Assembly: GCA_016295795.1 (NCBI GenBank)
Contig: JAEDKN010000003.1
Location: forward strand, 1,680-65,679
Length of the DNA stretch: 64,000 nucleotides
Direction: 5' to 3'
From: Bacilli bacterium
GTDB lineage: Bacteria; Bacillota_I; Bacilli_A; RF39; UBA660
This document shows, one piece after another, positions 19,975 to 37,731 of the stretch. A model generated the notes under the pieces. The model was not told the origin of the DNA, did not search any database, and worked only from the letters and a program-made list of their open reading frames with translations. A program made the position numbers and the translations under genes. The first letter of the stretch is position 1; every line of letters starts with the position of its first letter.

Positions 19975-20060
19975 ATTTTATCATTTCTGCAGTATTATAC
20001 AAGGTTCACTTTTGAGTAATAGCATGTGTACTAAAATGGGTACATAAATGAGTACTACTG
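19975..20060 (-). promoter_or_regulatory. Promoter/operator module L1 (leftward, toward leader ORF, regulator and transfer genes)
   Basis: Minus strand TTGTAT (rc 19997-20002) -16 nt- TAAAAT (rc 19975-19980). Upstream GTGAACC and GTACTAAAATGGGTAC / GTAC boxes (20026-20060). Inverted homolog of 25648-25714. Confidence 0.45.
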
Positions 20061-20079
20061 AATTAAAAAAGATAGATAA

Positions 20080-20397
20080 TTACTTGTTATCTATCATTTC
20101 TACTAATGAATCAAATTCTTTGTTTTCGATATAATTTGATAATTTTTCAAAATATTCAATTGAACTTTTTTCATCATCAAATACTTTAGTTCCTACATTT
20201 GAAATAATCTTGTCTTTTGTTTTACCAGCAAACATATATACTTCATATTTATTTAAATCTAATACATAATTAACAATACATCCTATATCATATTCATTAA
20301 TAGGATTATATACTCTAATTACTTTTTTCTCTAATGTAGAATCTGTTAGTTCTCGTGAAGCGGATTCTATGATGTTAATAAATTCATATATATTCAT
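20080..20397 (-). CDS. Hypothetical protein
   Basis: 105-aa ORF with SD GAGGTGA, after the helicase terminator. No motif recognised. Confidence 0.5.
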   Translation of the reverse strand: MNIYEFINIIESASRELTDSTLEKKVIRVYNPINEYDIGCIVNYVLDLNKYEVYMFAGKTKDKIISNVGTKVFDDEKSSIEYFEKLSNYIENKEFDSLVEMIDNK

Positions 20398-20502
20398 AGT
20401 AGCTGTTCACCTCTGTTATATATATTATACATTGCATGTGCTATTTAATATACATTTATTTTATTTTTTTATCAATATATAAAAGAAAAAAGTAGAAAAT
20501 AT

Positions 20503-23379
20503 CTACTTTCTAATTTCTAAATGACCTTCTATAAAGGCATTAGGGTAAAGAAATTGCTTTTCGCCAGATTTAAAATTAACTTTAATATGAGTTCTTTTCA
20601 AATCTATCCATGAAACACTACCAATACCAAATGATTTATGTTCTACAAAAGATCCAATATCCAATTCATCTAAATCAGCTAATATTTGATTTTTTTCTTC
20701 TTCAGATATTTTAGGAATTTCTTTCTTCGGTTCTTTACGCACATCAAATATCATATTTGTAACCTTTTCATGTTCTTCTTGTAATTCTTCAATTTCTTGA
20801 TCAGGTTCTATTTCATAATTCATAGAACTTTGTTGATTTACAAATAAACGTTCAAATTCTTCTTTTTTAATAATAGTATCCCATCCACCAATTTCATCAT
20901 CAGATGAATGTTTATTAATACCAGAATAAGATAAACTTGAATCTTCATATCTTTTAAATTTAAAGATAGCTTCATTCATTAAGCTTGAATTAAATACTCC
21001 AATACTACAAAGTATTTCAAAATCCTTTGTTGTTAAACCAGTAACTTTCTTAAATAATTCTGGTTCTAATTGTGTAATTACATCTTGAAGAGATCTTTCA
21101 CGATAGTCTGTTAAGTACATAAATACAGGAATTCTCGTTGCAAATTTAATTAATTTTTCTTGTATTTGTTTTCTCAATGATTTATTTTTCTTTTCTTCTT
21201 CATCAATCTCTTTCTTCTCTTTTTCTGTCAATTTTTCAACTTCAGCTTTGGCTTTCTTTATTTTTTCAGATTTATTAATAATCGTTTCAACTACGTTATT
21301 TCCTAAAGATCTAAAACCTTCAATATGCATTATTGCATCTAAAGCTTCTTTATTATCTATTAATCTTCTTAAAGTATCATTATCTACATTAACTAATAAA
21401 GCAGACTCCCATCTTCTAGCTAAAAGAGTTGCAGAAGTTCCAGACATAGCAATATCCAAAACATCTTGAGCACTAATTTGTCTCATTGAAGAACCATCGT
21501 AAGCTAATACCGGTAAGAAATTAATAAAGTTAGCTACACTTTTTTCAGGATTTGATTCATGTATATCTAATTGACAACTATAATCAGCTATTTCTTTTAA
21601 TGCACGATCTAACGAAAAATCAAATACATAACATTCTTGTTTCATTATTTCTTTTTCATTCTTATCATTTGTAATTTCCCATGGTGATTGACATCTAAAT
21701 GCTGTTTGAAAATATGTTTCTGGGCTTTTTAAATTTCTTAGCATAAATACAGCAGACCAAGGTCTAACAGTTACTCCAGTAGTTAATTTTCCACATGATA
21801 AAGTTATTGTTTTTGTCTTTAATGGATCATCCATTGCAGATTGAACTGGGTTCAACGCATCTAGACCAATTCCAGCTTTTGTTCCAGAACAATTTATTAT
21901 TTTATAATCATGGTAGAATGTATTTTGCTTTTGTTTTAACAATTCTTCCATTGCATCACATGAAGCAACATTTGGCATAAACCATAATGTATGTTGCAAA
22001 GCAGCCAATAATCTTGCATCAGAAAATGGCATTGGAGGTCTCTTATCTTGTCCTAATTTCAAATCATCTATACTTGATGGCAAATATGAACCTCTTATTA
22101 AATCCAACCATTTTTGAACTTCATTTTCATATTTAAATTTTGCAACACCATCAACTTTTTCAGCAGAAAAGAAAACGTTCAAGTCAAACTCATTAAATTC
22201 TCCTTGCATCGCAATTTGTCTTATGCTATCAGGAATTTTATACGTTAACATAACCATTCTAGGCAATGATAAATATGGATTATTTGAACCAATCCATTCT
22301 TGCTTAGCTGTTTGTTCATCAGAATAAGTCCAACTAAATATTTGCTCCTCAATAAACTCACCAGAGTTTATAGCTCTAAAAGGAGTACCAGATAAAAATA
22401 AATAATACTTCGTTGTTATTGGTAAAAAACTTTCATTAAATGCATTATCTGCCTCTTCTTTTTTATACTTTTCAACATCAAATTCTAATTCTGATTCTTC
22501 ATTTGTTACCTCAAATAATTTAGAAGCTTTTTCTCTCCAAGCACCATAATGATATTCATCAAAAATTACTAAATCCCAATTTTCGTTATGAATAAATTCA
22601 TTTTTTGCTTTAATTCCTCCATTATCATTAGTACCTAATAAATCTTGAAATGAACCGAATACAACAATAGGATTTGATTTATCAGCATTTTCATACATCT
22701 TATCTATACTTATTTGATTAAATTGTGCGTCTTTGTTGGAAATAAATTGCCAATTATCAAAATCTATATGAGTTAATAAATCTTCGGCCCACGCAGATTC
22801 AACAGCTGGTTTAAATGTTAAAATTAATATTCTTTTCAAATCCATTTTTTTAGCTAATTGATATGATGCAAAAGTCTTTCCAAATCTCATTTTTGCGTTC
22901 CATAAAAATTTTGGAGCAGAAACTGGATCATCAATTAAAGCTTCATTATAATACTCAATAGTTCTATTAACAGCTCTTACTTGCTCTGGTCTCATTTTAA
23001 AAGTATTAACTCTATCTTTTGAATATTTGACACCTGTTTTTAATTCTAAAATAGCATTTTTTACTTCATTTAAATCACACTTAAACCATTCATTTTTATC
23101 TATGTCAGAATTTAATTGTAATATTCCATTTCTTTTTAAAATCTTATGAACATCTTTATCAGTAAATACTGTTCCGTCACATCTTATTGATGATTCTGAA
23201 TATATAATTTTGTATGGTACAGCGCTAGTATGAAGTTGTTCTTGAATTCTCTCTTCAACAGCTCTTTCGGTATATCCTACTTTTATATAACCTTTATGTG
23301 ATTCAACACCAATCAATTCATAAACATATATAGTAGGATTAACATTTGGTCTGGAAGGAAAAAAATCAATTTGTTCCAT
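20503..23379 (-). CDS. T5orf172/GIY-YIG-like domain + SF2 (type III Res-like) helicase + C-terminal UvrD/PcrA-type Tudor-like domain
   Basis: N-terminal IYVYELIG...GYIKVGYTERAVEERIQEQ...NEWF (T5orf172-like). RFGKTF Walker A-like and FDEYHYGAW (DExH). C-terminal GSFVEHKSFGIGSVSWI...VNFKSGEKQFLYPNAF like the PcrA/UvrD C-terminal domain. Start set to the ATG at 23379 (TAATG overlap, SD GGAGGGG). Confidence 0.7.
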   Translation of the reverse strand: MEQIDFFPSRPNVNPTIYVYELIGVESHKGYIKVGYTERAVEERIQEQLHTSAVPYKIIYSESSIRCDGTVFTDKDVHKILKRNGILQLNSDIDKNEWFKCDLNEVKNAILELKTGVKYSKDRVNTFKMRPEQVRAVNRTIEYYNEALIDDPVSAPKFLWNAKMRFGKTFASYQLAKKMDLKRILILTFKPAVESAWAEDLLTHIDFDNWQFISNKDAQFNQISIDKMYENADKSNPIVVFGSFQDLLGTNDNGGIKAKNEFIHNENWDLVIFDEYHYGAWREKASKLFEVTNEESELEFDVEKYKKEEADNAFNESFLPITTKYYLFLSGTPFRAINSGEFIEEQIFSWTYSDEQTAKQEWIGSNNPYLSLPRMVMLTYKIPDSIRQIAMQGEFNEFDLNVFFSAEKVDGVAKFKYENEVQKWLDLIRGSYLPSSIDDLKLGQDKRPPMPFSDARLLAALQHTLWFMPNVASCDAMEELLKQKQNTFYHDYKIINCSGTKAGIGLDALNPVQSAMDDPLKTKTITLSCGKLTTGVTVRPWSAVFMLRNLKSPETYFQTAFRCQSPWEITNDKNEKEIMKQECYVFDFSLDRALKEIADYSCQLDIHESNPEKSVANFINFLPVLAYDGSSMRQISAQDVLDIAMSGTSATLLARRWESALLVNVDNDTLRRLIDNKEALDAIMHIEGFRSLGNNVVETIINKSEKIKKAKAEVEKLTEKEKKEIDEEEKKNKSLRKQIQEKLIKFATRIPVFMYLTDYRERSLQDVITQLEPELFKKVTGLTTKDFEILCSIGVFNSSLMNEAIFKFKRYEDSSLSYSGINKHSSDDEIGGWDTIIKKEEFERLFVNQQSSMNYEIEPDQEIEELQEEHEKVTNMIFDVRKEPKKEIPKISEEEKNQILADLDELDIGSFVEHKSFGIGSVSWIDLKRTHIKVNFKSGEKQFLYPNAFIEGHLEIRK

Positions 23380-37380: not shown

Positions 37381-37484
37381 TTTTTCTCTCCTCCTATAAA
37401 TATTATATACTAAAAGCATCAAAAAGTATACTTATTTTTGTTGTTTTTGTATTTTTTTCTCATTTTTTAAATAAATACACTGAT

Positions 37485-37512
37485 ATTTTATCATTATTTT
37501 TTTATTTGTCAA
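37485..37512 (-). promoter_or_regulatory. Sigma-A-type promoter for the ATPase-RloB operon
   Basis: Minus strand TTGACA (rc 37507-37512) -16 nt- TAAAAT (rc 37485-37490). Confidence 0.5.
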
Positions 37513-37614
37513 CTTTTATTTAAATAACTACCATTTCCGCTGTATTCTCCTGAAGAGAACAACAAAGTACTATAATCCCTTTTAAAATAATACTTTAAAC
37601 ATAATTCACAAATT

Positions 37615-37731
37615 ATTTTAGATGCACTTTAAGTAACTTTCAACCACCCATTTTTGGGAAAATAAATGCCACTGAGGGAAAATGAGAGACACTAAAAGGC
37701 CACTAAATGCTACTATTTGCCACTAAAAAAC
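37615..37731 (-). promoter_or_regulatory. Module B: inverted copy of the promoter/operator module
   Basis: Minus strand GGGTGGTTGAAA (-35 rc 37638-37643) -17 nt- TAAAAT (rc 37615-37620). Upstream boxes on the plus strand: GGGAAAAT x2, ACACTAAAAGGCCAC, CCACTAAATGC, CCACTAAAAAAC (37664-37731). Confidence 0.45.

Follow-up and report, generated by a model that had tools for sequence, protein, structure and literature searches.

Several described systems bear on the locus presented here, a window of 64,000 nucleotides (positions 1,680 to 65,679 of contig JAEDKN010000003.1, assembly GCA_016295795.1) from a Bacilli bacterium of the RF39 lineage UBA660, in which an integrative conjugative element (ICE) carrying two similar promoter-like modules, A and B, is followed by a defence island with two further sites, C and D. 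In the ICEs of the SXT/R391 family, SetCD recognises the same box before several promoters, including those of xis and of the transfer operons, so that excision and transfer are co-induced. In the lambda Q system, the strong -10 of PR'-tR' is joined by another -10-like element where the transcript begins, and some tens of nucleotides downstream stands a terminator, which has to be passed for the operon to be expressed. The small directionality factors Cox of P2 and Apl of 186 bind phased direct repeats both at the attachment site (att) and at promoters, and ICESt1 and ICESt3 of Streptococcus thermophilus exemplify the accretion of an ICE and a cis-mobilisable element (CIME) at one att site. 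Orf7 of Tn916 may be comparable to the ArpU-like protein that is encoded by the present ICE. The regulatory region of Tn916 comprises the promoters Porf7 and Pxis, the sigma-like protein Orf7, terminators and the antiterminator canT (Wirachman & Grossman 2024, PMC11658703). The phage late-gene activators of the RinA, ArpU and LtrC type switch on one tightly controlled promoter before a long operon (PMC3152322, PMC3753634), and the conjugation operons of the pLS20 type, to which conAn belongs, have a long leader with terminators and a small first gene at the operon head (PMC8191782).

On balance we think it probable that A and B are twin modules of the ICE under common control and that C and D are the arms of a separate island. 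The locus resembles Tn916 in being a Gram-positive ICE in which excision and transfer would be coupled at the level of transcription and in which terminators stand at the start of the transcription units (PMC11658703), as well as in having a small sigma/ArpU-like protein and a cargo gene near the regulatory region. However, Tn916 makes one transcript that runs through xis-int and then, after circularisation, through the transfer genes, whereas here two divergent module copies face both gene sets in the integrated state. The proposed shared box before the xis and transfer promoters also recalls SXT/R391, although those elements have Gram-negative hosts, the unrelated FlhDC-like proteins, and a single site rather than a 12-bp-phased array.

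Two homologous modules of the element

The window forms part of contig C15 of a genome of 1.12 Mb (27% G+C, 70 contigs), and its positions below 27422 correspond to the ICE, which is read chiefly on the minus strand. Modules A (19957-20054, minus strand) and B (25635-25732, plus strand) form an inverted pair of 98 nt that is 72% identical without gaps, and a repeat search returned this pair as the longest inverted repeat between 19 and 39 kb. Their local alignment score is 61, against a mean of 18.8 and a standard deviation of 2.9 for shuffled sequences (z 14.7, and 17.2 in a second run); MAFFT extends the gap-free alignment to about 113 nt, and the similarity stops abruptly at both sides. The inverted homology put forward in the original prediction was thus borne out against shuffled controls (z of about 15-17). 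Its view that A and B belong to one ICE and diverge, one towards the transfer genes and the other towards xis-int, is likewise supported. The sequence contains the hexamers that it had read, 16 nt apart, both -35 elements matching TTGACA at only three of six positions.

Each module has five direct boxes in an exact 12-bp register (nTTTAGTACnCA), the last of which overlaps the -35. As read from the phasing, the array of A (20001-20062, minus strand) is CAGTAGTACTCA, TTTATGTACCCA, TTTTAGTACACA, TGCTATTACTCA and AAAGTGAACCTT, and that of B (25629-25688, plus strand) is GGAAATTACACA, ATTATAATCCCA, CATTTGTACCCC, TTTTAGTACCCA and TAAATGAACCTT. The autocorrelation at lag 12 gives z values of 3.7 for A and 2.8 for B, and the five best window matches of a position weight matrix (PWM) made from these boxes all fall inside A and B and nowhere else. 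The predicted promoter core of A (19975-20002, minus strand) has the -35 TTGTAT at 19997-20002, a 16-nt spacer, TG at 19982-19983 and the -10 TAAAAT at 19975-19980, a stretch that is unchanged across ten near-identical contigs. The core of B (25687-25724, plus strand), identified from the sequence and by alignment to A, has a predicted -35 TTGCAT at 25687-25692, again a 16-nt spacer, TGa and the -10 TACAAT at 25709-25714. The two spacers are identical at 12 of 16 positions, and both -10 elements are of the extended TGn type (TGaTAAAAT, 19975-19983, minus strand; TGaTACAAT, 25706-25714, plus strand). Four bases past each -10 there is a second -10-like hexamer, TAAAAT at 19965-19970 in A and TAAACT at 25719-25724 in B.

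In both modules this hexamer is followed by a hairpin. In A the second hexamer, the hairpin and a U-rich tract occupy 19900-19970 (minus strand), as delimited by folding and by comparison with a diverged copy of the ICE; the hairpin itself (19926-19969) has a 13-bp stem and a folding energy of -19.7 kcal/mol (z -3.7). Past the B promoter, a terminator scan and folding identified an intrinsic-terminator-like hairpin at 25741-25770 (plus strand), formed by a 9-bp stem (25741-25763) and seven T residues, which ends three bases before the xis ribosome-binding site. A divergent extended -10, TGtTATAAT (about 25591-25599, minus strand), faces the cargo genes and has the B array upstream, as read from the sequence. 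Module A is directed towards a leader, an ArpU/sigma-4-like gene and the transfer genes, and module B towards xis-int. The second hexamer at the transcript start together with the nearby hairpin is similar to the lambda Q arrangement, a resemblance only, in which the hexamer lies at about -2 to +4 in A and B and at +1 to +6 in lambda; no candidate for a Q-like protein was found by sequence.

The comparison with relatives indicates which parts of the module are kept. In the diverged ICE copy (locus L145, on a 2.3-kb contig of sample SRR18398366), whose neighbouring proteins are 55-61% identical to those of the window, an orthologous A module has a 12-bp-phased array at the same place (z 4.1) made of a different box, TAGTATACC. 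Between L145 and window A the -35 and spacer are 56% identical, the region from the extended -10 to about +140 is 92-97% identical, and the flanking genes are about 71% identical at the nucleotide level. Thus, the module has kept its architecture while its boxes have changed in sequence, and constraint on the early leader is strong, which suggests that the early leader after A (window 19845-19984, minus strand; 465-610 in L145) may represent a conserved cis-acting RNA or DNA element.

Homologues of xis occur in 107 of 401 family genomes. On other contigs, Xis homologues that are 76-82% identical adjoin recG, and their genes are preceded by one nearly identical module with, in order, a TTTTAGACACA box region, AAACC-TTGTTA, TGtTAAAAT, GTAGTAAAAT, TGAAATAATTATG, a terminator and the xis ribosome-binding site. 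The xis modules of relatives show repeats, an extended -10, RTAGTAAAAT, a terminator and the xis ribosome-binding site in the same order, and four loci (L183, L186, L188 and L191) have near-identical xis-upstream modules with the terminator likewise before xis. Since module A aligns with these xis modules (z 9.0 against that of the xis-int relative L188), A and B can be regarded as two members of a module family normally located upstream of xis, of which this ICE carries a second copy before the transfer block. No inverted module partner was found in the xis-int relatives without transfer genes (L184 and L186).

A third related element lies in the same genome on contig C50 (L003; 7520-8450 and 11446-12688). 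It encodes int, xis, GmrSD, two Dcm methylases, AbiTii and HicB, shows an A-like promoter followed by four 11-bp-phased AAAAGGTACGG boxes before a second promoter, and ends in a hairpin and CTTCAGGGGG. A common promoter-leader module resembling the relatives' xis modules is also present at L092, L094, L097 and L112 (genomes G002, G003, G183 and G005), and consists of element-specific repeats, TTGACT, a palindromic spacer, TGGTAnAAT, ATAGTAAAAT, GAAnTAATTATGCA and a terminator.

In the mechanism that we propose, A and B are paralogous modules of about 100 bp in which phased boxes abut a weak -35. An extended -10 comes next, then another -10-like hexamer at the predicted start site and, no more than about 60 nt on, a terminator-like hairpin, which would keep basal expression low. 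Module B would drive xis-int and module A, in the opposite direction, the leader, the ArpU/sigma-4-like gene and the transfer genes. Most probably, one ICE-encoded box-binding protein would set initiation at both modules, by which excision and transfer would be switched together; the candidate binders are Xis or the arm-binding domain of the integrase, a 105-aa protein encoded next to A, and the ArpU-like protein. This co-regulation through A and B is plausible, and Xis or Int would be a serious candidate for the box binder.

The defence island and its attachment site

The original prediction had grouped A and B with two sites further to the right, C and D, as four copies of one module. The pairing of C with D held in part, given an exact 13-mer, TGGGTGGTTGAAA, of which these are the sole two exact copies in the window, one shared TTTTCCCTCA box, and an alignment z of 4.5. 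The link between the pairs did not hold, since the z values reach only 1.1-2.3, within background, when either A or B is aligned with C or D. Instead, C and D appear to be the att-proximal arms of a different, integrase-less defence island integrated in tandem with the ICE.

The left arm, formerly module C (27423-27552, plus strand), was reread as such from its distance to the att core and a match in another genome, G226; it has five 10-bp-phased TTTTCCCTCA-type boxes followed by AGTGGTTGAG and TGGGTGGTTGAAA (z 4.2 at lag 10). The right arm, formerly module D (37615-37754, minus strand), characterised from the sequence and a promoter scan, comprises TTTAGTGGC-type boxes, TTTTCCCTCA, TGGGTGGTTGAAA at 37638-37650 and a hairpin at 37738-37755. 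It also contains a promoter-like site, TTGAAA-17-TAAAAT (37615-37643), which may be real. The core CTTCAGGGGG has two copies only in the window, at 27413-27422 and 37755-37764, each after a hairpin; the second, a direct copy on the plus strand, marks the junction of island and chromosome and is followed by the chromosomal flank TTTTGGTT, as in other genomes. The island (27423-37764, 10.3 kb) is in this manner enclosed by direct repeats of hairpin and CTTCAGGGGG, between the ICE and the recG-side flank.

A short xis-like gene (27617-27808, plus strand) follows the left arm; its product matches the ICE Xis (E 1.4e-5) and, like it, phrog_989. The cargo (27854-37422, minus strand) was assigned by Pfam and PADLOC and encodes a DUF2075/Schlafen-type helicase, a DUF4145 protein (PD-T7-4-like), MazG-like and NUDIX proteins, a type IV PLD-helicase-DUF3427 enzyme, a 480-aa protein, AbiLii and AbiLi. 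Nine Pfam queries with the island open reading frames (ORFs) of at least 75 aa showed no recombinase domain, the xis-like gene being the only one of its kind.

Several observations in other genomes separate the island from the ICE. In GCA_016296765.1 the same ICE end is joined straight to the recG-side flank and the island is absent. In G226 the same left arm and xis-like gene (96% identical) have another, non-ICE, left neighbour and other cargo. At least ten other family genomes contain the C motif TTTT(A/G)GTGGTTGAnTGGGTGGTT, invariably at a distance of 117-128 nt to the att core and with unrelated cargo behind it. At the locus L065 this motif abuts the xis ribosome-binding site and leaves no room for a -10 before it, so the 13-mer of C is there no conserved -35. 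The 13-mer shared by C and D is better explained as an arm-type site, and the repeats of both arms would be putative binding sites of recombination proteins. In L074, a xis-int element that is intact, each arm shows GGTGGTTGA-type boxes, and L119 has a similar inner motif, TTTCAACCACCCA, about 130 nt from its core; we rejected D as a conserved arm type, its alignment to the L119 arm reaching a z of only 2.3. At L027/L065 (contig C156 of G319) the left-arm motif recurs in an island whose xis is intact; a retron-type reverse transcriptase gene in convergent orientation comes next, and a macrodomain gene spans the core.

Like a CIME, the island is flanked by att copies, is devoid of integrase and transfer genes, and lies beside an ICE with the same core. 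The likeness to ICESt1/ICESt3 resides in the tandem of an ICE and an element without integrase or transfer genes, with direct repeats of the att core both between and around them. The differences are that the target here is a small-RNA-like gene by recG, that the passenger keeps a xis-like gene and is full of defence systems, and that arrays of two or three such units occur in relatives. The island arm boxes (GTGGTTGA type) differ from the ICE arm boxes (GGTATCTA type), which argues against the island simply using the ICE integrase.

The integration target (37735-37868, minus strand), a small-RNA-like gene of about 95 nt downstream of recG, was delimited by a promoter scan and covariation. It has the promoter TTGACT-17-TATGAT, two hairpins and a conserved single-stranded AACCAAAACCCCCUGAAG, and its stem P1 shows compensatory changes across 10 genomes; an Rfam search gave no match. 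The terminator of this gene is supplied by the inserted element, each inserted element replacing it. The same chromosomal flank is present in 28 metagenome contigs with at least 15 visibly different element ends, many of which have their own arm repeats.

Cargo, leader and gene content of the element

Between A and its cargo there is a 105-aa backbone gene (20080-20397, minus strand) with its own promoter region (20398-20491), which is kept in all cargo variants and whose product is 55% identical in L145; Pfam, PHROG and NCBIfam-type profile searches gave no family match for it. The cargo itself (20492-25572, minus strand) is a split type IIG restriction-modification system according to Pfam and PADLOC (REase_MTase_IIG, MTase_II), with genes for a 965-aa T5orf172-ResIII protein, a 507-aa Eco57I-type methyltransferase and a 222-aa partial methyltransferase. 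The Eco57I-type methyltransferase (23379-24902) is a single 507-aa ORF in the window and in L009, and is split into 387 and 102 aa in four loci from two contigs (ERZ8974994 and ERZ940999), which could be decay or phase variation. PADLOC recognises defence cargo between both pairs of sites, as had been proposed; A, however, is parted from the cargo by the 105-aa gene, and homology to the ICE variants L014 and L016 breaks at 20491/20492, upstream of this gene and its promoter.

Three different cargos adjoin the side of A and the 105-aa gene, each ending in its own terminator. On the B side, the module shared by relatives starts about 60-95 nt upstream of the -35, and at least five different defence cargos stand beside homologous xis promoters, namely type I, type III and type IIG restriction systems, Dcm methylases with McrBC, and bacteriophage exclusion (BREX). 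This survey of relatives, with three cargos by the A side and five by xis promoters, bears out the expectation of a cargo slot, and the view that the space beside the modules serves as one is well supported.

Downstream of the A hairpin, the remainder of a leader of about 290 nt in total (19687-19899, minus strand) was delimited from gene calls in relatives, a terminator scan and the L145 alignment. It holds a 35-codon ORF (19737-19844) and terminator-like hairpins at 19693-19730 and 19787-19804. A long leader with terminators and a small first gene of the conjugation block is a trait shared with the conAn operons; nevertheless, the 154-aa protein encoded by that first gene and its 23 homologues gave no match to ConAn1 (Pfam PF17362).

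This first gene of the transfer block (19222-19686, minus strand) was provisionally assigned to the ArpU/RinA type from profile matches. Its product matches phrog_248, 'transcriptional activator', with an E of 1.2e-10, and TIGR01637 (phage_arpU) over the full profile length with an E of 3.7e-5, the 24 bits being below the cut-off of 43.1; Pfam gave no match. A profile of 24 homologues found in PDB only chains with sigma-region-4/GerE helix-turn-helix folds, all weakly. In an AlphaFold model (mean predicted local distance difference test score 78), the C-terminal 65 residues superimpose on the -35-binding domain of SigL with a template modelling score of 0.70 over 67 residues and a root-mean-square deviation of 2.2, the E of about 1 being non-significant. 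The label ArpU-like is thus reasonable. The protein shares with the RinA/ArpU/LtrC activators the match to phrog_248 and the sub-threshold one to TIGR01637, and differs in that its gene heads a conjugation block instead of lying upstream of terS. Only two clusters of it exist in a set of 5.8 billion proteins; no relatives were found in the collection of genome contigs, no tblastn match in phages, and neither it nor the 105-aa protein has a homologue in the third element of the same genome (contig C50).

Among the products of the ICE are a coupling protein, a relaxase, an M23 peptidase, a VirB4-type ATPase, a sortase and a thioester/SpaA adhesin. The xis-int block (25785-27270, plus strand) comprises a xis-like gene (25785-26015) for a product of 76 aa, with a weak match to the ICEBs1 excisionase (E 0.0016), and the gene for a 377-aa tyrosine integrase (26137-27270; Pfam Phage_integrase). 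The int-proximal arm, at the right end of the ICE (27271-27422, minus strand), was defined by contig breaks, sequence and a terminator scan; it has two 12-bp-phased boxes, TTTTAGATACCA and TTTTAGATGACA, at 27332-27355, then a hairpin (27397-27413) and the core copy described above. Position 27422 is the break point in four independent contigs. At the other end, since contig C61 of the same genome stays 100% identical to the relative, the ICE far end is not reached and should lie beyond the start of C15. Near it there is a second variable segment (16940-18948 in L077; from 10968 onward in L078), where one contig has DUF1697/hydrolase genes and another an ICMT-like gene.

At least 13 public contigs carry the ICE in near-identical form. 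One of these (L009, from GCA_016296765.1) is 100% identical to the window ICE over 18.2 kb, whereas the recG of that genome is only 68% identical to the window recG (38025-39889), which points to a very recent transfer between distinct hosts. Further along the window, a full-length ornate, large, extremophilic (OLE) RNA (379 bits) was found at 47948-48544 (minus strand) and a T-box leader at 61458-61639.

Alternative readings and biological meaning

Were all four sites copies of one module, a single ICE regulator would also control promoters at the island ends. It is true that all four have phased direct repeats before a TTGnnn hexamer, that all contain TTTTAGT, and that a xis homologue follows B as well as C. 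Nevertheless, the comparison between the pairs stays at background, the box period is 12 bp in A and B and 10 bp in C and D, and the PWM of the A and B boxes has no strong match in C or D; furthermore, the island is missing beside an identical ICE elsewhere, the C arm stands beside a non-ICE neighbour in G226, and the C motif keeps its distance to the att core and not to any -10, abutting the ribosome-binding site in L065. We consider this reading very unlikely. The inverted repeats might instead be recombination substrates that invert or swap the restriction-modification cassette, as had also been suggested, in view of their inverted orientation and length of 98 nt and of the cargo between them, which varies among otherwise identical ICEs. 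This possibility has faded almost entirely, because the contigs spanning A, B or both are all colinear with the window, none having the inverted order, the cargo breakpoint at 20491/20492 falls 430 nt beyond A, upstream of the 105-aa gene, a 72% identity without a long identical block makes a poor substrate for homologous recombination, and relatives with other cargos have no inverted partner. The similarity of A and B could also be neutral, left behind by a recent duplication and unconnected with any common regulation, in line with there being only two copies whose similarity ends abruptly on both sides. We find this improbable in view of L145, which keeps the 12-bp array abutting the -35 despite its changed box sequence, of the -10 and leader, which are far better conserved than the neighbouring genes, and of the spacer and initially transcribed bases, which are kept between A and B.

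Two readings concern the protein that would act on the boxes. The boxes of A and B may be sites for Xis or the arm-binding domain of Int, doubling as transcription regulators with no dedicated regulator; we hold this to be possible although rather doubtful. The ICE arm boxes TTTTAGATACCA and TTTTAGATGACA match the second and third boxes of A at 16 of 24 positions, the promoter boxes of L145 (TAGTATACC) are closer still to the arm type, repeats of GTACCTA or GGTATCTA are present in the arms of many related elements, and a TTTTAGACACA box precedes xis even in relatives whose sequenced stretch shows just xis, int and cargo. On the other hand, the A/B PWM gives the arm boxes only 5 bits and reaches 6 or more at 172 positions of the window; about ten other window sites also reach 16 of 24, the chance of one such site in the arm being about 0.03, which is marginal; and the promoter boxes of element E3 (AAAAGGTACGG) differ from its arm boxes (AAATGTAAAAG). 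An identity of arm and promoter boxes was not upheld, owing to the low PWM score and the marginal 24-mer match. Cox and Apl differ from the present case in this respect, the arm and promoter boxes of the window being alike, but not significantly. The other reading, which is more ambitious and which we judge unlikely, takes A, B and the xis promoters of relatives as a new promoter-proximal gate of the Q type, in which the boxes would load a factor, the -10-like hexamer would act as a pause, and the terminator, at most about 60 nt away, would be read through. The ICE would then have duplicated the module in order to couple excision with transfer, and the leader part conserved at 92-97% would belong to the device.

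Several points weigh against our preferred reading, that is, twin ICE modules A and B under common control and a separate island bounded by C and D. Promoter activity, start sites and termination at A and B are predictions from sequence; the -35 hexamers match the consensus TTGACA at three of six positions, and a consensus promoter scan did not list the -35 element of either module. The extended -10 with its following core (TGnTAAAAT-TAGTAAAAT) is frequent across the bacterial family, a tRNA promoter included, and corresponds to a generic strong core and not to an ICE signature. No regulator of A and B was identified. For the L145-type ICE, of which there is only the 2.3-kb contig, no B copy was found; a scan of the collection for TAGTATACC-type boxes gave only chance matches in unrelated phyla and no further relatives. 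A more distant ICE, in G034, shows a -10 and a leader resembling those of A and no inverted partner within 12 kb. Arm D has no significant relative beyond its short motif, and no core copy for the ICE far end was found within 3.4 kb past the divergence point of two relatives. As a separate matter, TGnTAAAATnTAGTAAAAT was considered as an ICE-specific signature and rejected, being present in 124 of 301 family genomes, housekeeping promoters included; a reversed-pattern control also matched often, about half as many times in a rough tally.

A, B and the island represent largely ordinary, if informative, mobile-element anatomy, namely a duplicated regulatory module in an ICE and the accretion of a passenger at one att site. 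They provide a testable wiring diagram for an ICE of poorly studied small-genome gut Firmicutes, an element that is moving now, as indicated by its identity of 100% over 18 kb between genomes whose recG genes are 68% identical. The cargo slot beside the xis module could help to find defence genes. Integrase-less defence islands accumulate in tandem at a single att site in an unannotated small-RNA-like gene, and such tandem islands matter when 'defence islands' are read in metagenome-assembled genomes. If the gate of the Q type were true, it would be widespread among the integrative elements of small-genome Firmicutes.

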